From an uncultured bacterium (GTDB lineage Bacteria > Verrucomicrobiota > Verrucomicrobiia > Verrucomicrobiales > DEV007), in NCBI GenBank assembly GCA_963977015.1, contig CAXBMO010000007.1:192001-256000 (forward strand): a stretch of DNA of 64,000 nucleotides, given 5' to 3'. Positions 22,119 through 34,786 of this stretch are shown here, in pieces. The notes under the pieces are model-generated. The model had not been told where the DNA came from and made no database searches. It saw nothing but the letters and a program-made list of their open reading frames with translations. A program made the position numbers and the translations under genes. Every line of letters starts with the position of its first letter. Position 1 is the stretch's first letter.

Positions 22119-22367
22119 GATGTTGGCGAAGATCGCTCCGTGACTCATCCTGTCAATTTCCGAACTGAGGATCGTCCAATCCGAGCGACTTTCACCTCTT
22201 ACCGCATTCCTCGTCGGTTCTGCCTGAAGTCCCTGATCACCGGTTCCAATCAATGCGCTGAAGCTCTACGATTTGGCCGAATTCGCTTGGTGAATCGAGC
22301 AATTCTTCGCAGTTTGTGTCTGTAGACCTGGATTTGGTCCGTGTATTCTATGTTTTGGATTCCAATC

Positions 22368-24785
22368 ATGCGCTTTCGACTCTTTACCGCTCTTTTGATC
22401 GGCCTCGGCTCTGCTTCGGCCTTGGCGCAATCTTTTGATGAGCCCTTGATCCCGTTTCTGGAGACCCACTGTTACGATTGCCACGACGACAGTCTGAAGA
22501 AGGGCGGTCTGGACCTGTTTGAGCTGGGTGTGGATTTGAGCGACGAAGCCGTTCAAGCGAAGTGGGTTCGCATTTATGATCGTGTGATGCGCGGCGAGAT
22601 GCCGCCGGAGGATAAGAAGCAACCTACAGAGGAAGAACGTCGCGCCTTCAGCCGGCATTTGGCGATGCCCATCGCGAAGGCTCACGAGGAATCCAAGGGC
22701 ACGGTTTTGCGGCGCCTGAACCGTGAAGAGTATGAAAATACGATGAACGACCTGTTCGGCACGAAGCTGGAATTGGCGAAGATTTTGCCCGAAGACGCCC
22801 GCTCCCACGAGTTCTCGAATGTGGGTGAGTCGCTCAGCATCTCCATGGTGCAGATGGAGCGTTATCTTCAGGCCGTCGACCTGGTGTGGGAGGATTTTAT
22901 CGTCGACGACATCAAAGGCCTGGAATCCAACGTGATCCGGGTCAGCTATGCGGAAACCCGGGAGGCCGAGAAGTTCATCGGCACGAGCTGGCATCAGGCA
23001 AAAGATGGGGCGGTGGTCTTTTTTCGGCGAGTGGGATACCCGACCGGAATGCTTCGTGGGTCGGGAGTTCGCGAACCCGGTCGCTACAAGATCCGCGTCA
23101 CCGGGTATGCCTATCAATCGGAGAACCCCATCACCTTCTTCCTCGGCGGAACGACGTTTGCCCGAGGCGTTGAGAAGCCGACTTACGGCTACTATCAATT
23201 GAAGCCGGGCAAGCCGCAGACGATCGAAATTGAGACCACGATTCCTCACAATTACATGGTTCAGATTGAGCCGGAAGGGATTTCGGTTTCCACTCCCGAA
23301 CTGAAGAAGATCGGCATCGAAAACTACAAGGGGCCGGGCCTCGCCATCAACCATGTCGAGATTGAAGGCCCGCTGGTGGAGGAGTTTCCGAAACGCGGAT
23401 ACCGTCTCATTTTCGACGGCATTGATCGCCATGAAGTGATGCCGAACAATCCCAAGGATCGGGAACGAAGCTATTATCGGCCGAAGTTTGACGTTACCTC
23501 GGAAGATCCAAGCCGCGACGCTGCGCAGTCGTTCAAACGCCTCGCGACCGCGGCCTTTCGACGCCCGGTCCAGAACGCTGAACTAACGCCTTACCTTGAC
23601 CTCTTCAATGCTGAAATGGAAAGTGGTTCCACTTTCGAAGAATCACTTCGGACGGGTGTAAAAGCCATTCTCTGTTCGCCCAATTTTCTCTTTCTGCGCG
23701 AGAAACCCGGCAAACTGGATGATTACGCGCTGGCGTCCCGGCTCTCCTACTTTCTCAATCGCACGAGCCCGGATGCGGAGTTGTTGGCCGACGCCGATGC
23801 CCGCCTGTTGGCCGGCGATCCCAAACGGTTGCTGAAGCATGCCGACCGATTGCTGGCGAAGCCTCATTCCGAGCGTTTCGTCATCGACTTTACCGATGCG
23901 TGGCTGGATTTGCGAAACATCGAGTTTACCGCGCCCGATCGAACTCTGTTTCCTGAGTTCGATCCGTTTCTGCAGTTTTCGATGCTGGCCGAATCCCGCG
24001 CGTTTTTCGAAGAATTGTTGGAGCAGAACCTGAGCGTTTCCAATCTCGTCAAATCCGACTTTGCCATGTTGAACAACCGGTTGGGTAGGCACTACGGAAT
24101 TGAGGGAGTGAAGAGCCCATCGATTCAACGCGTGAGCTTGCCCGCCGACAGTCCTCGTGGCGGCTTTCTCAGTCAGGGAAGCGTGCTGAAGGTTTCCGCC
24201 AATGGGACCAACACATCGCCTGTTGTTCGTGGAGTTTGGGTGATGGAACGCATTCTGGGGAAGACGCCACCTCCTCCGCCACCGGGAATCCCGGGAGTGG
24301 AACCCGATATTCGGGGAGCCGAGACCTTGCGGGATTTGCTCGACAAGCACCGAAATTCGGAAACCTGCCGGAGTTGTCACCAGATGATCGATCCGCCGGG
24401 TTTCGCGCTGGAAAGCTTCAATCCGATCGGTGGTTGGCGCGAGCAGTTTCGCAGCCTCAACAACAAGGACAAACGTCCTGAGATCATCGTCAACGGACAG
24501 AATGTTCGTTACCGCATCGGACCCGAAGTCGACTCAAGTGGTCAGCTTGCCGATGGAAGTGAGTTTGCCGGTTTCAATGAGTTCCGGACCTTGCTGGCTC
24601 AAGATCAATCCACCCTGGCCCGCGCCCTCGTAACCAAGTTCCTTATCTTTGCCACGGGCCGCGAAATGGGATTTTCGGACCGTCCTGAAATCAACCGGAT
24701 CGTGAAGACCGCCGCCAAGCAGGGATACGGGGTCCGTGATCTCTTGCATCTCGCGATTTCCAGCGACATTTTTCAAAACAAATAG
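22368..24785 (+). CDS. PVC-type cytochrome-c/DUF1587-1595-1592-1588-1585 domain protein
   Basis: Signal peptide, CYDCH, GEMPP, LRRLNREEYENT, AFRRP, LASRLSYFL, RGGFLSQG, TSPVVRGVW, CRSCH..IDPPGFALE, FATGR. Confidence 0.9.
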   Translation: MRFRLFTALLIGLGSASALAQSFDEPLIPFLETHCYDCHDDSLKKGGLDLFELGVDLSDEAVQAKWVRIYDRVMRGEMPPEDKKQPTEEERRAFSRHLAMPIAKAHEESKGTVLRRLNREEYENTMNDLFGTKLELAKILPEDARSHEFSNVGESLSISMVQMERYLQAVDLVWEDFIVDDIKGLESNVIRVSYAETREAEKFIGTSWHQAKDGAVVFFRRVGYPTGMLRGSGVREPGRYKIRVTGYAYQSENPITFFLGGTTFARGVEKPTYGYYQLKPGKPQTIEIETTIPHNYMVQIEPEGISVSTPELKKIGIENYKGPGLAINHVEIEGPLVEEFPKRGYRLIFDGIDRHEVMPNNPKDRERSYYRPKFDVTSEDPSRDAAQSFKRLATAAFRRPVQNAELTPYLDLFNAEMESGSTFEESLRTGVKAILCSPNFLFLREKPGKLDDYALASRLSYFLNRTSPDAELLADADARLLAGDPKRLLKHADRLLAKPHSERFVIDFTDAWLDLRNIEFTAPDRTLFPEFDPFLQFSMLAESRAFFEELLEQNLSVSNLVKSDFAMLNNRLGRHYGIEGVKSPSIQRVSLPADSPRGGFLSQGSVLKVSANGTNTSPVVRGVWVMERILGKTPPPPPPGIPGVEPDIRGAETLRDLLDKHRNSETCRSCHQMIDPPGFALESFNPIGGWREQFRSLNNKDKRPEIIVNGQNVRYRIGPEVDSSGQLADGSEFAGFNEFRTLLAQDQSTLARALVTKFLIFATGREMGFSDRPEINRIVKTAAKQGYGVRDLLHLAISSDIFQNK

Positions 24786-24812
24786 CCCCTTCCACTCCGT
24801 CCACCTTTCGCC

Positions 24813-26111
24813 ATGAACAGCCCTCACCTCGCTACCGGTTCCCACCTGAGCCGACGCCACTTTCTCCGCGGAACCGGCGCAGCCGCCTTGAGCCTTCCGA
24901 TTCTGGACGCCATGACTCCGGCGTTTGCCGCAACGGCCCCGGCAAAGTCGCCACCCCGATTTGTCGCGATGTGCGCCGGCCTCGGATTCCATACGCCTTA
25001 CCTGTTTCCTGAGAAACCCGGCAAAGACTATCAGGACACCCCCTACCTGAGCCGCTTGAAGGCGCATCGCAATCAGATGACGATCTTGTCGGGATTTTCA
25101 CATCCCGAACAACAGGGAAACAATGGACACGCATCCAGCCTGACGTGGTTGACCTCGGCAAAACGACCGGGGTTGGCAGGCTTCAAGAACAGCATCTCCC
25201 TTGATCAGCTGATTGCCAGCCAGATCGGGATTGAAACGCGATATCCCTACCTCACGCTTTCTTCTGGGGGCAGTTCGCTTTCCTGGACCTCCAACGGGGT
25301 CGAGATTCCAGCCCAGAATTCTCCCGCCAATATTTTCAAGGCGCTTTTTATCGATGGGACGGAAGCAGAGATTGCCGCTGAGATGCGAAGCTTCCAACGG
25401 GGACGAAGCATTATGGATACCGTATTGGGAGAAGCGAAGAAGCTGCACAATGAGCTGGGGCATCGCGACCAGGAGAAGCTTGACGAGTATCTGACTTCGG
25501 TTCGTGAGCTCGAACAACGCCTCCAGCAATCCGAGAACTGGTCCCAACAGCCCAAGCCCAAAATTGACGCCGAACCGCCTACCGACATTAGTGATCGGAA
25601 TGACATCATTGGGAAGCAACGGCTTCTGAATGACATGATCGTTCTGGCGCTGCAAACGGATTCGACAAGAACCGTGACGTTCCAATTGGGCAGTCTCAAC
25701 TCACCGCCCAGCAATATCGAGGGAGTGAACACCGATTGGCACAACCTCTCACACCACGGCAAGGACGAAGCCAAGATCGAAGAATTGAAACTGATTGAGG
25801 AAGCGGAGTTTGATGTCTTCAACGAGTTCCTCACCAAGCTCTCCAGCATCAACGAGAACGGCCAGACGCTCCTGGACCGCACATCGGTTCTGTATGGTTC
25901 GAATCTGGGGAATGCGAGCAGCCACAACTGGCGCAACCTTCCCTTGATCCTCGCCGGTGGCGGATTCAACCACGGTTCCTACATCGCGCATGATCCTGAC
26001 AACAATACGCCATTCGCCAACCTCCTGGTTCCGTTGGCGCAGCGCATGGGAGTCGAGATCGACCAGTTCGGGAGCAGCACCTCAGCGGGAATCGCGGAGT
26101 TGAGCGTGTGA
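24813..26111 (+). CDS. DUF1552 (HXXSHH) protein, Tat-exported
   Basis: Tat motif SRRHFLRG, LPILDAM, ISLDQ, SIMD, WHNLSHH, TLLD. Usual partner of DUF1592 proteins. Confidence 0.9.
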   Translation: MNSPHLATGSHLSRRHFLRGTGAAALSLPILDAMTPAFAATAPAKSPPRFVAMCAGLGFHTPYLFPEKPGKDYQDTPYLSRLKAHRNQMTILSGFSHPEQQGNNGHASSLTWLTSAKRPGLAGFKNSISLDQLIASQIGIETRYPYLTLSSGGSSLSWTSNGVEIPAQNSPANIFKALFIDGTEAEIAAEMRSFQRGRSIMDTVLGEAKKLHNELGHRDQEKLDEYLTSVRELEQRLQQSENWSQQPKPKIDAEPPTDISDRNDIIGKQRLLNDMIVLALQTDSTRTVTFQLGSLNSPPSNIEGVNTDWHNLSHHGKDEAKIEELKLIEEAEFDVFNEFLTKLSSINENGQTLLDRTSVLYGSNLGNASSHNWRNLPLILAGGGFNHGSYIAHDPDNNTPFANLLVPLAQRMGVEIDQFGSSTSAGIAELSV

Positions 26112-27221: not shown

Positions 27222-30200
27222 CTAACGAACCTCCAGCAGCACCGGTTGGGTTTCCCCACGAACTTCGGGCTCATAGTATTGATACGCGACGCTGGCTGGG
27301 GCCTGCACCTTGACCGGGAACTTTGCCCGCAACTGATAGCGGAACTGCAATGGCTTTCCATCTCCCGGAATCGCATTAAAATAGAGTGTGACTTGGCGTC
27401 CCTTTGGCTCGAATCGTTGGATGGTGCCCTTCTTCAACAACGCCTGAAAGGAGGCTGCCTCGATTTCAAAACCTGGTGGGATTCCGAGGTCAACCAGCGT
27501 CATGGGTGCAAAACCCGGGCGGTTGTAACGCAGGGTCACGTCAACGTTGAGAAGATCGCGGCTCGCCAATTCCGTCGTTTCGTAATCGGTTTCGATCTCC
27601 AGGATTTGCTCGGTTTCGCCTTCCTCGTCCGCATGAGGTTCGTAGTGCACCGCAACCAGCTGGTAGGCAAGGTTCGCCTCGCGATTGATGTTGAGAACGA
27701 CTTCGTTGTCCCCGGCTTTCACGAACTCGGTCAGACTGACCAGGTGGAAAACATCTGCGTTTTCCTTCGTAATTTCGAGCGGATTGGTCACGTCTCCATT
27801 TGCCGAGATCTGAACCGTCACGGCGCCTTTGATCTTACCTGCTGAGCCGGCCCCCATCAGCAAGGCGCGCATCGCCTGGACCGTCGCCTGAGTTGAATGC
27901 CAGGTTCCGCCGCTGTCACGCTGGGAGATCAGCCAGGCCAGGGCTTTGTGCGCCGTTGAAATAGAAGCATTCGCGCGCATCATCGCCTGGGCAATCAAGG
28001 CCGTGGTTTCAATGTCGAAAGAGCCACCCCGGCCATAGGTCAATCCCTCCCCTTCCGCTTTCCAAAACACAACGCCGTCCTGCTCCTGCTTCATCGAATC
28101 CAACTGGCGAATCACCTCACGCGCCTCCGCATCTCTTCCCGCCGTGACAAACGCGTTTGCGACCAACGCCAACGTGTAGGCGTCATTGACGCCGTCACTC
28201 TTCGCGGCCAGAAAGTCAAAGCTTGCATCCAGTTCCTTCCCGCCACCAGCTTCGGCAACGGCCCAGGCGATGTAAGCGGTGGAACGCAACGCCGCGTCTT
28301 CACGCGAGTTCTTGAAATTGTTGATCGCACCTTCAGCGATTCCACCCGTGGGAGGATCCCAGCTTCCATTATTCTGGCGCTGTTGCATGAGCCAGCTCCG
28401 CGTGCGCTCGATCACAGCTTGGTCGACTTCATAGACTTTGGCCATGTCCACGAACTCCATCAGGCCATACGCGGTCAGGATCGTGTGGGCCGGAGGATTT
28501 CCAAACCAATCAAATCCTCCTCCATTCACTTCGTAGGACAACAGTCGCTGATATCCCTGGGCAATAAAGTCCAAGGCCTTCATCTCCAATTCCGGCTTAG
28601 CCTGTTTCGTATCGCGAAGATAGTTCAACACCAGCACATTCGGATAGGTGGTCGATGAGGTTTGCTCGAAACAACCGTAGGGCATTCGGAAGATGGAGTC
28701 CATGCCCTCCACGACCTGGCTAAACGCTCCGGGATAGATCTTCACAAAGAGGTCACTGCCACCGGAAATCGCATTTGCCGGGATCTGGATGCTCTCCTGC
28801 GTTTCTGTTGTGAGCCTCCCATTCTTTACAAGCTCCATTCTCTCACCATTCGGAACCACCCGAACCGTGCGTTCAACGGCATCGGCCAACTTTGATCCCT
28901 GCGCAAAGACCGTGAGGGAGTGACGTCCCGCTTCCAGCGCGCGAATGCGATAGCTCGACTGCATCACTCCACCTCCCGAAGCTTCGAGTGTTTTTTCCGG
29001 GACGTCAGATACCAACTCATACCAGTCTTCGGCTTGGGCCTTGAGCTGAATCGATTGCGGCTCTGAGAGATAATTGAAAATGGCGATCGGAATCGTAATT
29101 TCGTCGCCCTGGGTCAGTTCAGTCGGGAAATCGATATCGATGAAGAAATCCTGGAATACACGAATTCCACGCTCAAACGAGCCGAGTGATCCGTCTCGCG
29201 ACACCGCACTTCCTGACAATCGCCAGGTCGTGATCGAGTCGGCGAGCGCCAACTCCAACGAAGCCTTCCCATCAGCACCGGTTAGAAGCTGCGGTTGCCA
29301 CAAGAGGGTCTCTGGGAAATGGCGGCGAATCCGGGGAGGTTCGGCTTCACTGCCATCGTGACCATTTGGACCAAGTGAGCCAGCTTCGGACCTTCCAAAA
29401 GCGGCCTCGGCCACCATCATGTCACCATCAAATCGTTCCGCCTTTTCGATGAAGACGTCCAATGCATTCTGGGTCCTCCCGCCGTCCGCAAACGCCCCCA
29501 ACTTGGAGAAGACCGCCAGAAGAATTACCGGGATCAGGGTGAAGGCGGTATTTGCCACGAGGATTCCCAGCCTTTGCGGAAGGGTTTGCCAACCGCTCAA
29601 GGACTTTCGCAGGAATCCAATCAGCCCCGCCAGCAAAAAGAGAATCACAAACGAAGCCAGGGTCAACCGCAGGAACGTCGATTCATGGATTGCAGAACGA
29701 TTCGACTCATTGGCGACGACGAACCCCGTTACCATGAGCCCGGAAAGGCCATAGACAATCGGGATCAACACGACCATCTGGCGGAACAGCGAGAGGTGCC
29801 TGCTAGAATGCTTCAGCCTGCGGAGCTCCGCAGATTTGATTCCGAGCCACACGGTTCCCGTGATCATCAACACTACCCAAATAACGAACGCCATGGGAGC
29901 GGATAGATAGCCGATCGCCCGGCCGATCAGCATCATCAGAATTGGAGGCGCCAGCGTCGCGGTCAGGATGATCCAGAAAAATTGGCGCATGCGTCGTTGA
30001 AATTCGATGAGGTGAAGTTCTTCGGACTCGCCCGGGCGGAAGCGCAAACGCGACAGTCCGTAGCCCGCAAAGACCAGCGAACAAACGATCAACAAGCCAA
30101 AAGGAAAGGTTACCAACAACCGGAACAACTCATCAGCATTCTGGCGCTTGCGTTCCTGCAGTTTATTGCGGCGCTCTGCCTGGGAACTGCTCTCCGCAGA

Positions 30201-32300
30201 GATCGGTCCGCCGGGATCGGCAGCCGCGGCGAAGGCAATGACATTCGCTTCTTCGAGCTCAGGCGTCGGCGCCCCGGGATCCGGTATTGCCGTGAAGTCT
30301 GACGGAGGTTGAGCGACAAACTGCGCTCTCGGTTTGAGGATTTCTTCCTGGATCAGGAAATACATTTCTTCCAGTCCGGGGCGAGAGTCGTTCAGTGCAA
30401 AAACGGCCTCATCAACTGCGGCAAGACTCAGGGCGGCCTCGACAGGTGATCCGTCCTTCGACGTGACCAGGAACTCGATCATTGCCTTCTCCGCGGGTCG
30501 ATACGTTTCGGCGTCGAGCTTGGCCTGAACCTGGAGTTGGTCCGCGCGATGCACCTGGATCAGCTTGGAATCCCGGGCGATGTCTCCGTTATCCAGAATT
30601 GCGTAGGCCTGCAGTTGAAGCGTCCCGGCAAGGTCGAGCGGGATATCGTAGGCATATTCTCCCATTCCGCGTTTCAACTCGATCGAGGACGTCGCCAAGG
30701 ATCGACCATTTTTCACAACATCGAGGAACACACGTTTCGCTTTTGACGCAGAAAGCACCTTCAAGTTGGCAGTCTGCCCCTGTCGGTAAATCGCCCCATC
30801 AGTCCTAAGCAGGATCCCATCGACCTGCACGCCAACCGCAAGCTCCTTGGTCACCTTCACCTCGGCACCCCGATCCGAGCGGGCTGAAAGCGACAGCTTC
30901 AAGTTCGGTTTGTCAGGAGTCAGCTTCACCTTGCCAATTCCCAACTCATTGGTTTCCACGCGAGACCCTCCTCCGGTGTAGATAACTGCTTTGGCAGGCG
31001 TCCCGTCCGGATAGGCCGCCACGATGTAGAGCGTATTCTCCACGTTTTGAACCAGTTCACCGCTTTCCGGGAAGACCTCGACGCGCAACGGCTGATTCGT
31101 CACCTTGACCTGAAGAGGATGTCTGCGGGTCTCACCGGTTGCATCGGTCACTTCGGCCGTGAACCGAACAAACGCGTCTCCCTGATTCAAGGACTGTCCA
31201 ACGAAGGCATCTTTGAGAGCAATCTCCGTTTCGAATGATCCCTGATCATTCGTCGTTCCTGTGACGGTTTGGAAGGTTCGAAACCGCTCGATAAACTCGT
31301 CTGAAACGATGCGGATCTTGCCTCCCGCAACCGGCTTTCCAAAGGTGTAGTCGGCATTCAACTCAAGCCGGACCTTGTCGCCCGGGGCATAGTAGCCGCG
31401 ATCCGCCCGAAGACTGACCTTGAACTTGGGAAGCACATAGCGCTCGACCTTCACCTCGCGCTCAGAGGTCGTGTCATCAATCGTGACCGCGATCGTATAG
31501 CTTCCTTCGTTGACCTGGTTCGCCAACTTGAAGTCCGCTGACGCGATGCCAAATTCGCTCGTGGCGATGAGCTTGCGGAACACCTTGTTCCCCTTTGCGT
31601 CCCTGACTTCAAAAGCCACCTCACGCGATGAGGCAGGTTTCAGGGAATCGGCCTCCATCGAAAGCGCCCGCATGTGAATGATCTGGCCGGGCTGATAGAG
31701 CGGCTTGTCCGTGCTTAGCATGGTTCGAAAGGATCGCCGAACCGTGATTGACTCCTCGGTGTTCGCCTTGCCGGATTTCCCGCGAACCTCGGCCACCAAC
31801 TTATAAGCCCCTTCCTCGACCGTATTTCTGACTTCGGCGGAGAGATCCGCAATCCCGTTCTCATCGGTTCGCGCAGAGCCGAGACGCCGCGATGATCCAT
31901 CATCCCCAATCATCATCACTCGGACCTTGGCATTCTCAACCGGCCGACGAGTTTCCTCACTTCGCACGAAAACTCGCACCGGCGTGATTTGCCCGGGTTC
32001 AACTCTTGGCTGCGTCACCATCACCACCTGCGTTGGATCGGGTTGTGCCGTTTCCACGACCCAGGTCTTGCCACCAAGTCCGATTGCGAAGAGAAAGGCG
32101 ATCAACGCCGCGACCTTCCAGAACCCGCCACTAAAGAGCCAGGGCCAAGCATTTTCGCTTTCACCGTCCTGCCCCCCGATTCGCCGCTTGACGGCAGCGA
32201 TGAAGCCTTCGTCATCTCCCGGTCCGCCCTTGCGACCGTATTCCTTCATCATGCCGTCCATTGCGGCATCTTTACTGTTTTCGTTAGGTTCTTCAGGCAT
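27222..32300 (-). CDS. Membrane-anchored thioester-containing alpha-2-macroglobulin-family protein with an anti-sigma-like N-terminus and a 6-TM insertion
   Basis: Start MPEEPNEN at 32300 overlaps the sigma stop. MG domains (STDKPLYQPGQ, RYVLPKF), AAVDEAVFAL, RRHFPETLLW, LADSITTW, thioester MPYGCFEQ, GTWHSTQATVQA, C-terminal MTLVDLGIPPGF...YQYYEPE. Confidence 0.9.
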   Translation of the reverse strand: MPEEPNENSKDAAMDGMMKEYGRKGGPGDDEGFIAAVKRRIGGQDGESENAWPWLFSGGFWKVAALIAFLFAIGLGGKTWVVETAQPDPTQVVMVTQPRVEPGQITPVRVFVRSEETRRPVENAKVRVMMIGDDGSSRRLGSARTDENGIADLSAEVRNTVEEGAYKLVAEVRGKSGKANTEESITVRRSFRTMLSTDKPLYQPGQIIHMRALSMEADSLKPASSREVAFEVRDAKGNKVFRKLIATSEFGIASADFKLANQVNEGSYTIAVTIDDTTSEREVKVERYVLPKFKVSLRADRGYYAPGDKVRLELNADYTFGKPVAGGKIRIVSDEFIERFRTFQTVTGTTNDQGSFETEIALKDAFVGQSLNQGDAFVRFTAEVTDATGETRRHPLQVKVTNQPLRVEVFPESGELVQNVENTLYIVAAYPDGTPAKAVIYTGGGSRVETNELGIGKVKLTPDKPNLKLSLSARSDRGAEVKVTKELAVGVQVDGILLRTDGAIYRQGQTANLKVLSASKAKRVFLDVVKNGRSLATSSIELKRGMGEYAYDIPLDLAGTLQLQAYAILDNGDIARDSKLIQVHRADQLQVQAKLDAETYRPAEKAMIEFLVTSKDGSPVEAALSLAAVDEAVFALNDSRPGLEEMYFLIQEEILKPRAQFVAQPPSDFTAIPDPGAPTPELEEANVIAFAAAADPGGPISAESSSQAERRNKLQERKRQNADELFRLLVTFPFGLLIVCSLVFAGYGLSRLRFRPGESEELHLIEFQRRMRQFFWIILTATLAPPILMMLIGRAIGYLSAPMAFVIWVVLMITGTVWLGIKSAELRRLKHSSRHLSLFRQMVVLIPIVYGLSGLMVTGFVVANESNRSAIHESTFLRLTLASFVILFLLAGLIGFLRKSLSGWQTLPQRLGILVANTAFTLIPVILLAVFSKLGAFADGGRTQNALDVFIEKAERFDGDMMVAEAAFGRSEAGSLGPNGHDGSEAEPPRIRRHFPETLLWQPQLLTGADGKASLELALADSITTWRLSGSAVSRDGSLGSFERGIRVFQDFFIDIDFPTELTQGDEITIPIAIFNYLSEPQSIQLKAQAEDWYELVSDVPEKTLEASGGGVMQSSYRIRALEAGRHSLTVFAQGSKLADAVERTVRVVPNGERMELVKNGRLTTETQESIQIPANAISGGSDLFVKIYPGAFSQVVEGMDSIFRMPYGCFEQTSSTTYPNVLVLNYLRDTKQAKPELEMKALDFIAQGYQRLLSYEVNGGGFDWFGNPPAHTILTAYGLMEFVDMAKVYEVDQAVIERTRSWLMQQRQNNGSWDPPTGGIAEGAINNFKNSREDAALRSTAYIAWAVAEAGGGKELDASFDFLAAKSDGVNDAYTLALVANAFVTAGRDAEAREVIRQLDSMKQEQDGVVFWKAEGEGLTYGRGGSFDIETTALIAQAMMRANASISTAHKALAWLISQRDSGGTWHSTQATVQAMRALLMGAGSAGKIKGAVTVQISANGDVTNPLEITKENADVFHLVSLTEFVKAGDNEVVLNINREANLAYQLVAVHYEPHADEEGETEQILEIETDYETTELASRDLLNVDVTLRYNRPGFAPMTLVDLGIPPGFEIEAASFQALLKKGTIQRFEPKGRQVTLYFNAIPGDGKPLQFRYQLRAKFPVKVQAPASVAYQYYEPEVRGETQPVLLEVR

Positions 32301-32817
32301 GATTTTCCGATTGTTGGGTGATGCATTTGCCCAATTGGGCGCGAGCGCGTTGCAGTCGTTTCCGAATGGCGGCCTCGTCGGCATCCAGCCGTTTGGCCAC
32401 CTCTACGCCACTCAGTTTTTGAAGATAAAATAGATCGACAGCCTTCCCCATTAATTCCGGCAACTTGCGAATGCAGCGATGCAAAACGGCGAACAGATCC
32501 GTGCCGGTTTCCGACTCTTGTTGATCCCAGGAACGATGCTGAGCTTCGATCGCCTCCAGCATTTCCTCATCCATGCCGACCAGTTTCTGGGCGCGGGCCC
32601 ATTCGCGAACTTTGTTCCGGACAATTCCTCGCATCCAACTGCCGAAATCCCGGGTGACATCGAATTTTTCCAGGTTGGTCCAGGCAATGACAAAGGCGTC
32701 TTGAACCAGATCGCGCGCGGCATCGTTCCCACCGGTAATCGAGAAAGCGTAAGCCAAAAGCCGGCGATGATGCTGCCGAACGAGAATTTCAAAGGCTTTG
32801 GAGGGGTCTTGCGTCAC
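32293..32817 (-). CDS. ECF-type RNA polymerase sigma-70 factor
   Basis: Region 2 (AFEILVRQH...ARDLVQDAF...DFGSWMRGIVRN) and region 4 (LHRCIRKLP...EVAKRL...AIRKRLQRARAQL). Confidence 0.93.
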   Translation of the reverse strand: MTQDPSKAFEILVRQHHRRLLAYAFSITGGNDAARDLVQDAFVIAWTNLEKFDVTRDFGSWMRGIVRNKVREWARAQKLVGMDEEMLEAIEAQHRSWDQQESETGTDLFAVLHRCIRKLPELMGKAVDLFYLQKLSGVEVAKRLDADEAAIRKRLQRARAQLGKCITQQSENHA

Positions 32818-32954
32818 GAATTCTGGACTTGAGTTGAGAGTAGTTGAAAAAGAAACGGGATTTGTGACATGGAATCTGAGAAAATGACACGATCCAATCC
32901 ATTCGGTGATTCTCTTGACTTAAGAGCCGACGATGAGACCGAACGAAACCTAAT

Positions 32955-33608
32955 ATGACGAAACGCGTCCTGACCCAAGAAATCCTCGATCAACTTGAGC
33001 ATGATCACCCGGATGCCTTGCGGAGCCGGGCGGACTTGATTCGGATCAATGGAATTTTGGGGAACTTTCGTTGGCTGCGCAAAGCCCTGGAAGAACAAGG
33101 GGCTGCTGATGGATCCGCACACGTCGTAGAGATTGGCGCTGGTGACGGCCACTTTATCAGGAAGTTCGCCGCCGCTCACCCCAAGGTGAACTACACCGCG
33201 ATCGACCTGGCTCCGAAGCCTCCGGAATGGCCCTCGAATTTGAATTGGAAGCAGGGCGATGCGTTGGATTGCCTTCCCGAAGTTGGAGGCGACATCTTGA
33301 TCGCAAATCTCTTTCTTCACCATCTGACCGACGCGCAATTGGCAAAACTCGGCGAAGGTTTGAGCGGCTATCGCGCCGTCATCTGCAATGAACCGGCTCG
33401 CTTCCGAGCCTTTCATGTTTTGGGAAAAGGCGTGCAACTGATCGGGGTCAATTACGTAACCCGTTTTGACATGCATGCGAGCATCAACGCCGGCTTCCGG
33501 CACACCGAACTGCCAACGGCTCTCGGACTGGAGCAAGCCGGTTGGCACATCGAAGCGTTTCATTCCATTTTTGGGATTTACCGAATGCTGGCCACTCAGG
33601 AGCGATGA
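32955..33608 (+). CDS. SAM-dependent methyltransferase
   Basis: EILD...DLIRINGILG, VVEIGAGDG, ANLFLHHL, VTRFD...SINAGF. Confidence 0.82.
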   Translation: MTKRVLTQEILDQLEHDHPDALRSRADLIRINGILGNFRWLRKALEEQGAADGSAHVVEIGAGDGHFIRKFAAAHPKVNYTAIDLAPKPPEWPSNLNWKQGDALDCLPEVGGDILIANLFLHHLTDAQLAKLGEGLSGYRAVICNEPARFRAFHVLGKGVQLIGVNYVTRFDMHASINAGFRHTELPTALGLEQAGWHIEAFHSIFGIYRMLATQER

Positions 33609-34786
33609 ATCGGTTTTTTGACGTTGTGATTGTGGGGGCCGGTCCCGCGGGGCTGGCCGCAGCCGCCTGCCTGGGCCGCCACGGCTTGAAAATCGCAATT
33701 CTCGATCGCCGCAGCCTCCCGATCGACAAACCTTGCGGCGAAGGGGTCATGCCTCCCGGGGTGGCCATTTTGAAGAAATTGGGGGCAACCCCGTTTCTCA
33801 ACCAATCCGATTTTCACCCGTTTCACGGGATCCGGTATCTCACCCCGACCGGCAGGGTGGCGAAAGCTGACTTTGCCGAAGGCCCGGGACTCGGCATTCG
33901 CCGAACAAACCTCTCGCAGGCTCTCACGCATCTTCTGGATTCAATGCCAACCGTTGAGATCCACGAGAACACTCGCGTTCAAGGCATTGAGCAACACGAA
34001 AGCGGGGTTTCCATTCAATCGAACCGTGGCGATTTCGAGACACGCCTTTTGCTGGGAGCCGACGGGCTGCATTCCCGGGTTCGGAAATGGGCTGGGCTCG
34101 AAGGGAAAGCATCGCGGCATCGGCGACTCGGAATTCGCCGCCATTTCGAAGTTGAGCCCTGGAGCCGGTTTGTCGATGTCCACTCCGGTCCCGGCGTTGA
34201 GGCTTATGTGACGCCCTGTGGCCCGAATCAAGTCGGCATTGCCTGTCTATGGGAGCGTGACACCTATCCGGACGCCGAGCCGGGAAAAGACTTGCTGGAC
34301 TCGCTTCTGAAAGAGTTTCCTGACATTCAAAGAAAACTTGAGGGAGCCAAGCCCCTTTCGGAAACGCTTACAACGGGGCCACTGGAACAGAAGACTCGAC
34401 GGCGCGTTTCCGACTCCATCATCCTCATCGGAGACGCCGCCGGTTACCTGGATGCCTGCACCGGAGAAGGAATTACTTTGGCACTGAAGCAAGCGCAGCT
34501 TCTGGAATCCCACCTCGTTCCGCTTCTCGCCGGTTCGAGGGGGTTGATCCGGTCGAACCAGCTTCGCAACTATGAGGCGGCTTGTCGCAGGGTGTTGGCG
34601 TCCTACTATCTGGGAACACATTTCCTGTTGCTCCTGAATCGGCAGCCGCGGTTCATGGAGATCTTTGTTCGCGTATTGAGCCAACGCCCGGCGCTCTTGC
34701 AGCATCTTCTCTCCTTCAACATGGGGACGGTTCCACTGTGGCCAAGTCGGGCCTCTCTTCATCGCATTCTCGAATCCCATGCCTAA
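33605..34786 (+). CDS. NAD(P)/FAD-dependent oxidoreductase (geranylgeranyl-reductase/monooxygenase-like)
   Basis: GAGPAG, DKPCGEG, GADGLHS, IGDAAGYLDACTGEG. ATGA-coupled to the methyltransferase. Confidence 0.85.
   Translation: MNRFFDVVIVGAGPAGLAAAACLGRHGLKIAILDRRSLPIDKPCGEGVMPPGVAILKKLGATPFLNQSDFHPFHGIRYLTPTGRVAKADFAEGPGLGIRRTNLSQALTHLLDSMPTVEIHENTRVQGIEQHESGVSIQSNRGDFETRLLLGADGLHSRVRKWAGLEGKASRHRRLGIRRHFEVEPWSRFVDVHSGPGVEAYVTPCGPNQVGIACLWERDTYPDAEPGKDLLDSLLKEFPDIQRKLEGAKPLSETLTTGPLEQKTRRRVSDSIILIGDAAGYLDACTGEGITLALKQAQLLESHLVPLLAGSRGLIRSNQLRNYEAACRRVLASYYLGTHFLLLLNRQPRFMEIFVRVLSQRPALLQHLLSFNMGTVPLWPSRASLHRILESHA

Follow-up and report, generated by a model that had tools for sequence, protein, structure and literature searches.

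A thioester macroglobulin-family protein with a predicted six-helix membrane bundle at the bait position, encoded next to an ECF sigma factor gene in a marine Verrucomicrobium

Here we analyse a macroglobulin-like gene in a stretch of 64,000 nucleotides (contig CAXBMO010000007.1, positions 192,001 to 256,000; the whole stretch is referred to below as the window) from an uncultured marine Verrucomicrobium of the DEV007 lineage. Judged from its domain profiles, the encoded protein is a member of the animal-type thioester family of alpha-2-macroglobulin (A2M), complement and TEP proteins, in which the bait position is mostly filled by a conserved membrane bundle with predicted-disordered linkers on either side. 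Its gene appears to be translationally coupled to a gene for an extracytoplasmic function (ECF) sigma factor. The architecture, to which a first-pass annotation of the same DNA had drawn attention, is confirmed as real and widespread, and the sigma-factor coupling, which that annotation had not seen, is a new element. In our reading, which we hold at slightly better than even, the protein is an inner-membrane-anchored thioester protease trap that probably doubles as the anti-sigma factor of the sigma factor encoded upstream.

The open reading frame (ORF) enclosing the gene (window 27222..32384, minus strand) has a translation of 1720 aa. Translation most likely starts at Met29 (window 32300), since this residue is invariant across an alignment of 21 full-length homologues, the database copy P0002 is 1692 aa long and the ESM Atlas copy likewise begins at residue 29. 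The Pfam profiles MG2 (residues 222-309, 2e-30), MG3 (315-391, 5.5e-09), A2M_BRD (526-664, 3.4e-11), A2M, i.e., MG7 (1026-1115, 1.8e-21), TED_complement (1221-1508, 3.5e-48) and A2M_recep (1628-1711, 4.6e-12) all match above their cut-offs, and all five residues of GCFEQ (1237-1241), which holds the thioester motif, are invariant in the homologues. Among proteins of solved structure, CD109 (7.5e-77) and human A2M (3.4e-68) are by far the best matches, followed by A2ML1, insect TEP1 and complement C4/C5/C3. Its domains follow the same order as in animal CD109, A2M, A2ML1 and TEP1, i.e., MG1-6, the bait position, MG7, CUB/TED with CxEQ and a receptor-binding-type domain. The same genome holds other A2M-family genes at G000:C1:24812-28369 and G000:C3:78151-79188 (open frames of 2010 and 1842 aa), whose matches to the window protein are confined to the parts outside residues 665-1025, suggesting that they are ordinary paralogues without the six-helix insert.

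Pfam leaves a gap at residues 665-1025 between A2M_BRD and A2M, which puts the helices at the bait/ANA position between the two MG6 halves (AAVDEAVFAL and RRHFPETLLW), exactly where the first-pass annotation had located them, and all six hydrophobic segments that it quoted are found as written at window 29505-30119 (residues 756-960). A Kyte-Doolittle scan with a 19-residue span gives six peaks of 2.13-2.61 in this region (residues 756-774, 802-820, 831-849, 871-889, 907-925 and 941-959), a seventh peak of 1.93 at residues 83-101, which represents the N-terminal anchor (transmembrane helix TM0), and no further peak elsewhere in the whole A2M protein. At the peak threshold of 1.55 used for homologues, six peaks are present in 17 of the 21 aligned sequences and five in the other four, and TM0 is present in 20. 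AlphaFold2 models residues 735-970 as an all-helical bundle with a mean predicted local distance difference test score (pLDDT) of 91 and a predicted template modelling score (pTM) of 0.84; in a model of residues 520-1120, the helices reach pLDDT values of 75-95 and the flanks, 661-735 and 967-1027, stay below 50. The count of six helices is thus borne out by hydropathy, model and homologues alike.

The orientation of the bundle is suggested by the charges of its loops. Averaged over the 21 sequences, the net charge is +4.3 for loop 1, +4.1 for loop 3 and +2.8 for loop 5, compared with 0.0 for loop 2 and -2.5 for loop 4; it is +0.1 before TM1 and -3.2 after TM6, although in the window protein alone the stretch before TM1 (residues 735-755) is rich in Lys and Arg. 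By the positive-inside rule, this pattern supports an even, out-in-out topology, in which the six helices would span the membrane with loops 1, 3 and 5 in the cytoplasm and both A2M halves in the periplasm, as had been proposed earlier from the Arg/Lys-rich loops of this protein. MG1-MG6 would be periplasmic because TM0 is oriented with its N-terminus inside, and the TED/thioester half would be periplasmic too because the bundle dips through the membrane and returns. Pro761 is the sole invariant residue within the insert across the homologues, and the near-invariant residues are Arg at the cytoplasmic helix ends and Pro within the helices.

Conservation, expressed as the mean top-residue frequency over the 21 aligned homologues, varies strongly along the bait-position region. 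The stretch just after MG6 (residues 665-690) has a conservation of 0.90 and a constant length; it is followed by a linker at residues 691-734 with a conservation of 0.58 and a length of 40-45 aa. Within the insert, the helices (0.38-0.59), the cytoplasmic loops (0.51-0.55) and the periplasmic loops (0.24-0.37) are all nearly constant in length, and the linker after the bundle (residues 964-1015) has a conservation of 0.26 and a length of 29-73 aa. Both linkers are predicted to be disordered (AlphaFold2 pLDDT <50). The second linker resembles a classical bait in that it lies in the periplasm, is predicted to be disordered and is hypervariable in both its sequence and its length, and we propose from the alignment and the models that the bait-like parts of the protein are the two disordered periplasmic linkers flanking the bundle, with linker 2 as the best candidate. 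The suggestion that the cytoplasmic loops could be exposed as bait finds no support, since these loops are conserved and of near-fixed length and the bait traits sit in the periplasmic linkers. The segment NDSRPGLEEMYFLIQEEILKPR (window 30315-30392), which corresponds to residues 665-690 and is the best-conserved part of the bait-position region, is kept in recognisable form in the Chloroflexota members. It had also been suggested that the insert tethers the thioester half after cleavage; this is possible and would depend on which linker is cut, because a cut in linker 1 would leave both fragments anchored in the membrane, whereas after a cut in linker 2 the thioester half would be retained by contacts of the MG ring only. 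That the protein is a membrane-anchored trap with periplasmic bait linkers is highly probable from these alignments and predicted models.

The insert is found well beyond the window. A pattern scan with one genome per species returned 569 relatives, of which the best 67 loci were kept; both boundary motifs were located in 58 of these, the other nine being cut by contig ends. Between the motifs, 38 loci have six hydrophobic peaks, two have five, two have four, one has eight, one has 11 and 14 have none. Six-helix forms occur in Verrucomicrobiota, Planctomycetota, Lentisphaerota, Kiritimatiellota, Acidobacteriota, Chloroflexota and metagenome-assembled genomes (MAGs) labelled Myxococcota. The locus with eight peaks is L044:4633-8271, and that with 11 (L032:2-5335, Lentisphaeria) has an insert of 665 aa, which could be a duplicated bundle. 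In L040, L044, L045, L047, L048, L061, L069 and L073, the open frame ends at ~1140-1215 aa, ~200 aa past the FPET motif, suggesting that the TED half is missing or encoded on a separate ORF; the hosts of these loci include several Chloroflexota, Ca. Uabimicrobium amorphum and one Myxococcota-labelled MAG.

A quick maximum-likelihood tree was built from MG1-6 only, with the insert excluded, using 53 rows; it omits rows with <480 residues ahead of the motif and counts L015 and L019 as six-helix forms although each has five peaks. The six-helix forms group in two clades, one of 11 Chloroflexota rows (Shimodaira-Hasegawa-like approximate likelihood ratio test, SH-aLRT, 100) and one of 25 rows (SH-aLRT 99), with a backbone that lacks resolution between these two clades and the helix-free Gemmatales clade. 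The six-helix label requires two changes on this tree, compared with a mean of 14.7 for shuffled labels. In the 11 Chloroflexota loci, six hydrophobic segments occupy the bait position, the cytoplasmic loops and the N-terminus are short, and the A2M gene has no sigma gene beside it.

In the window, the ECF sigma factor gene lies immediately upstream of the A2M gene on the same strand and ends in a TGA stop codon that shares bases with the A2M start codon (ATGCCTGA), an arrangement that points to translational coupling and, presumably, co-transcription. The sigma gene scores 88.4 bits with the NCBIfam model sigma70-ECF (cut-off 42.9), and among subfamilies TIGR02989 (Rhodopirellula/Verrucomicrobium family) fits it best, with 114.8 bits falling just short of the cut-off of 124.55. 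No other ORF separates the sigma and A2M genes in the window or in related loci, and the transcription unit would consist of these two genes, because the next real downstream gene (DAO) is convergent. A Pfam scan took in up to four upstream ORFs per locus and covered 150 of the 179 candidates, small ORFs on the minus strand being left out. An ECF sigma gene stands directly upstream on the same strand in 15 of the 33 assessable six-helix-type loci (window not counted), in one of two four-helix loci and in none of 14 helix-free relatives. All sigma-linked tree rows belong to one subclade of 21 rows centred on the Planctomycetes-Verrucomicrobia-Chlamydiae (PVC) group, 16 of which have the sigma gene (including the window), four lack it and one is at a contig end; the arrangement was found also in the genomes G003 and G010. 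The A2M-linked sigma factors share 25-58% identity with the window sigma factor, and these values mirror the A2M tree, with 49-58% in the near clades and 27-33% in the L022-type clade. Two cysteines of the window sigma factor, C115 and C165, are kept almost without exception among the 16 A2M-linked sigma factors.

A motif upstream of the sigma gene that resembles -35 and -10 promoter elements, TGTCACA-N16-CAA, is a candidate for an autoregulated ECF promoter. It has one match in the whole window, compared with 0.13 expected by chance, and occurs once upstream of the sigma gene on the gene strand in 13 of the 16 sigma-linked loci examined (the window, L012, L013, L015, L020, L022, L024, L025, L027, L035, L036, L039 and L041). 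It is also present upstream of the sigma gene in L077-L079 (loci of G003, G001 and G010), and L017 and L026, in which the genes are not annotated, have one copy each; it is absent from the 61 other loci examined. Across the genome, TGTCACA-N16-CAAY has five sites, compared with none for the reversed control. One of these sites belongs to the sigma/A2M operon, another lies upstream of a paralogous ECF sigma gene, and the remaining three stand ahead of a gene for a solute-binding protein, one for a metallophosphoesterase/LamG protein and ORFs that match no family. The sites yield no informative regulon and may belong to the paralogous sigma factor. This paralogue (G000:C1:89141-89694; L082:3403-3995) has 30% identity to the window sigma factor and 141 bits with TIGR02989, carries TGTCACA-N16-CAAT upstream and is followed by a 332-aa ORF without a Pfam family.

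The A2M protein occupies the gene slot of a membrane anti-sigma factor, directly downstream of the ECF sigma gene, and has the corresponding layout, with a cytoplasmic tail (residues 29-82), TM0 (83-107) and extracytoplasmic MG domains. Like anti-sigma factors of the RseA/RsiW/ChrR type, it is coupled downstream of an ECF sigma factor and would combine a cytoplasmic N-terminus and one transmembrane helix with a large extracytoplasmic part; in contrast to them, its tail has no match to an anti-sigma family, and its extracytoplasmic part is a 1600-aa thioester A2M protein that re-enters the membrane six times. Three family members carry the anti-sigma domain zf-HC2 at the very start of the protein, with scores above the cut-off (P0027, 38.7 bits; L021, 36.0; L074, 30.4) and each with HxxxCxxC; in L021 and L074 a sigma gene also precedes the A2M gene. 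G002 is the only relative in the window's genus without a sigma orthologue (best match 30% identity, in a genome that is 92% complete), and its A2M protein lacks the AMDG..EY motif of the tail; G001, G003 and G010 have kept both the sigma orthologue and the motif. G003, from the window's genus, also retains the adjacency of the two genes, and in G001, where the tail motif is intact, a sigma orthologue of 76% identity lies on another contig than the A2M gene. This lone orthologue (L078:1449-2043, on G001:C47) has the promoter-like motif, and no convincing ORF is present in the DNA downstream of it. The number of residues before TM0 is at most 12-50 in the clades without sigma (Chloroflexota), and sigma-linked members have a longer tail.

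Three other explanations have to be weighed against a sigma-controlling trap. The protein could be an artefact, i.e., a chimera or a frameshifted fusion of two half-genes across an unrelated membrane-protein fragment, given that the assembly is of metagenome type and that the read evidence is thin (depth 2-7, Logan contigs only). However, the same continuous ORF with five or six hydrophobic segments at the bait position recurs in 40 of the 58 assessable loci, from several phyla and independent assemblies; the insert region alone as a query matches 26 database proteins of 1045-1734 aa, all with A2M domain sets, of which the named ones come from Verrucomicrobiota, Planctomycetales and Phycisphaerae; the GC content is flat across the insert boundaries (0.55-0.58); and metagenome contigs from two studies span both boundaries with no joints and no loose ends. 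The conservation in independent assemblies indicates that the insert is not an assembly error, the bridging contigs add support, and we regard an artefact as practically excluded, so that the check for mis-assembly recommended in the first-pass annotation ends in favour of the gene. It is also conceivable, though improbable, that the bundle has an activity of its own, as a channel, transporter, intramembrane enzyme or lipid-handling module that the A2M scaffold gates or localises. Such an activity would agree with the confident folding of the bundle as an independent compact unit and with the nearly fixed helix and loop lengths across the 21 homologues. Against it, Pfam assigns no family to the insert alone (best T2SSF, E 0.25), and a phmmer search of residues 740-975 against 1.84 billion representative proteins gives 8 matches only, of which the long ones (624-1725 aa) belong to the A2M family under study and the short ones (206-382 aa) look like fragments (P0035 starts with the linker-1 sequence of the A2M family), leaving no clearly independent stand-alone family among them. 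The ESM Atlas gives no usable match for residues 735-970, Foldseek finds nothing for the bundle at E<=0.001 (best E-value 0.1), the best VIA-align Z of 11.2, to designed helical bundles, is in the range that is generic for helical proteins, and a fold search with the 601-residue model returns MG-domain matches only; none of these comparisons clearly ties the bundle to a known six- or seven-helix membrane family such as rhomboid, APH-1 or cytochrome b561. The helices contain no invariant charged or catalytic residue, and neither sequence nor model gives a sign of an enzyme or transporter in the bundle.

The third explanation, which we consider unlikely but of real weight, is that the bundle and TM0 do no more than fasten the trap, together with its trigger, to the cytoplasmic membrane. 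The bundle would then play a role like the lipid anchor of E. coli ECAM or the glycosylphosphatidylinositol (GPI) anchor of CD109, fragments and trapped protease would stay at the membrane, and the sigma factor would simply transcribe the gene while being controlled otherwise. An anchor of this kind would fit the presence of the insert where no sigma gene adjoins it (the 11 Chloroflexota rows, Acidobacteriota members, G001 and G002), the lack of a detectable anti-sigma domain at the N-terminus of the window protein, the lack of any invariant polar or catalytic residue in the bundle, where Pro761 alone is invariant, and the resemblance of the bundle to generic helical bundles only. It accounts less well for the zf-HC2 domains fused to three family members, for the overlap of stop and start codons in an operon with no other candidate anti-sigma ORF, and for the joint loss of N-terminal motif and sigma orthologue in G002; moreover, one anchor would be enough to tether the trap, but the family conserves both its loop lengths and its Arg-rich cytoplasmic motifs. 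The anti-sigma role itself also meets several difficulties. The window tail (~54 aa) matches no anti-sigma family at Pfam E<=0.1, and against the zf-HC2-type N-termini it reaches an hhalign probability of 0.08%. Adjacency is missing in two of the three closest relatives (on another contig in G001, no sigma orthologue in G002), and since the 11 Chloroflexota rows and Acidobacteriota members have the insert but no sigma gene next to it, sigma control cannot be the sole or original role of the bundle; the Arg-rich loop-3 motif is likewise retained in the sigma-less L019, L037 and L040. There is no evident route from bait cleavage to sigma release, and cleavage would be unlike that at site 1 of RseA, because a cut in either linker leaves MG1-6 on TM0. 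Adjacency could also mean merely that the sigma factor drives expression of the trap. A predicted complex of the sigma factor with A2M residues 29-112 and 735-970 counts neither for nor against sigma binding, because a control with a replaced TM-insert chain scored about the same as the real complex. Weighing gene order, domain fusions and co-loss against these points, we judge an anti-sigma role of the A2M protein to be marginally favoured.

If the protein is both trap and anti-sigma factor, the following sequence of events can be proposed. At rest, the cytoplasmic N-terminal tail would hold the sigma factor, possibly with help from the Arg-rich cytoplasmic loops. A foreign protease reaching the periplasm would cut linker 2 or linker 1, and a large rearrangement of the A2M type would expose the thioester and trap the protease on it. 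The same rearrangement would shift the bundle, which is wired into the trigger point, relative to TM0, or would open the protein to intramembrane proteolysis. The freed sigma factor could then transcribe its own operon from TGTCACA-N16-CAA, yielding more trap, together with a further regulon. In the sigma-less clades (Chloroflexota, Acidobacteriota), the bundle would serve only as an anchor holding trigger and fragments at the membrane. The strongest form of this proposal, in which the A2M/complement switch is a transmembrane receptor whose bundle conveys the movement after a linker cut across the membrane to release the ECF sigma factor, is tentative, and we hold it below even likelihood. The earlier idea that trap firing might be coupled to a membrane event gains a concrete form from the ECF sigma coupling and the anti-sigma slot, short of proof. 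Were the receptor to be real, the protein would be a bacterial 'protease-activated receptor' that traps and reports its attacker in one event, and the first member of the A2M family to signal directly to transcription.

CD109 is tethered to the membrane by a GPI anchor. Where animal A2M/TEP proteins have a soluble disordered bait, the window protein has a six-helix membrane bundle and two linkers, and it differs from them further in its N-terminal transmembrane anchor, its cytoplasmic tail and its operon coupling to an ECF sigma factor. In complement C3-C5, a helical ANA domain lies between the MG6 halves and is followed by the protease-sensitive alpha'NT site, cleavage of which exposes the TED. 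The window protein shares with C3/C4/C5 the order of MG6 half, helical domain, cleavable linker (here the candidate linker 2) and MG6 half, whereas its helical part is an integral-membrane six-helix bundle rather than a soluble four-helix anaphylatoxin, and the searches revealed no resemblance between the two in sequence or fold.

Bacterial A2M proteins have been divided into two types, as described in an earlier account (PMC5764988): Type I (YfhM/ECAM, Sa-A2M) bears a thioester (CXEQ) and undergoes a bait-triggered conformational change, its gene often lying next to pbpC, and Type II (MagD/YfaS) lacks the thioester and belongs to a six-gene operon. With Type I (ECAM, Sa-A2M) the window protein has in common that it is predicted to be a thioester-bearing periplasmic protease trap at the inner membrane. 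However, its similarity to YfhM/ECAM is distant only (E 1.3e-12 over residues 1033-1345, ~310 residues), bMG3 reaches 23.1 bits, below the cut-off of 34.9, with animal-type domain profiles matching instead, and no N-terminus of lipoprotein type was seen (a lipobox was not explicitly searched for), its place being taken by the 54-aa tail and a transmembrane helix. Further differences from Type I are the six transmembrane helices in the insert and the absence of a PBP1c/PBP-type domain among the 14 neighbouring ORFs scanned. In contrast to Type II, the window protein has CxEQ and belongs to a two-gene operon of sigma factor and A2M. With a thioester and no pbpC, animal-type profiles, a transmembrane anchor, a six-helix insert and a sigma pairing, it fits neither type. 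A preprint on the CAGE complex (10.1101/2025.09.22.677704), considered as a possible match, was set aside, the protein it deals with being a different one. A full-text literature search, which did not reach subscription papers and supplements, including those of the ECF classification papers, gave no description of an A2M protein with six helices at the bait position, in keeping with the first-pass remark that no such architecture was known among characterised A2M/complement proteins.

The coordinates of the sigma/A2M pair and its parts are collected in Table 1. Pfam matches among the 14 neighbouring ORFs scanned include the ECF sigma factor, a methyltransferase, the DAO oxidoreductase and DUF1552/PSD proteins. 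Upstream of the sigma gene, a minus-strand ORF of 294 aa (32814-33698) has no Pfam family and overlaps the Pfam-matched methyltransferase ORF 32955-33608 (+). This minus-strand ORF is probably spurious, and 32818-32954 would then be a promoter region between divergent genes. At window 22341-26111, a PSD/PSCyt gene (DUF1592/1588/1587/1585/1595, planctomycete cytochrome c) is followed by a DUF1552 (HXXSHH) gene, a pair that is typical of PVC genomes. In one Verrucomicrobiota subclade, a gene for a reprolysin-like M12B metallopeptidase stands just upstream of the sigma/A2M pair on the same strand (L022:32-664, L024:2007-3668, L035:1951-3660) and may be functionally tied to the trap.

Table 1. Positions in the window of the sigma/A2M gene pair, the promoter-like motif and the predicted parts of the A2M protein
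Feature	Position	Strand	Remarks
Promoter-like motif TGTCACA-N16-CAA	32844..32869	-	Upstream of sigma gene; candidate autoregulated ECF promoter
ECF sigma factor gene, 174 aa	32293..32817	-	Pfam Sigma70_r2 6.4e-16, Sigma70_r4_2 5.9e-10
A2M/TEP-like gene	27222..32300	-	1692 aa from Met29; ATG overlaps sigma stop codon (ATGCCTGA)
Cytoplasmic N-terminal tail (predicted)	32139..32300	-	Residues 29-82; conserved AMDGxxxEY...GDDExFIA motif (alignment); proposed to bind the sigma factor
TM0, N-terminal signal-anchor helix	32064..32138	-	Residues 83-107
Periplasmic MG1-MG6 half (predicted)	30393..32057	-	Residues 110-664; Pfam MG2/MG3/A2M_BRD
Linker 1	30183..30392	-	Residues 665-734; conserved 665-690, then disordered, moderately variable stretch; first bait candidate
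Six-helix membrane bundle with periplasmic pre-helix (predicted)	29487..30182	-	Residues 735-966; encloses 29505-30119
Linker 2	29340..29486	-	Residues 967-1015; disordered, hypervariable in sequence and length; best bait candidate
Periplasmic C-terminal half (predicted): A2M (MG7), CUB/TED, receptor-binding-type domain	27225..29339	-	Pfam
Thioester motif C1238-F-E-Q1241	28662..28673	-	G1237-Q1241 invariant in 21 homologues

A2M and complement proteins are, in the textbook view, soluble or peripherally tethered traps, and a polytopic membrane domain at the A2M trigger point is found in no described member that we came across. The occurrence of this family in several phyla gives it a bearing on envelope defence in many environmental bacteria and on the evolution of thioester proteins. 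The sigma/A2M pair offers a clean test system, with one sigma factor, one promoter motif and one sensor, in which a signalling role is directly testable. If the sigma coupling is functional, these bacteria would sense envelope proteolysis directly via a molecule of the innate-immunity type, linking the trapping of a protease to transcription.

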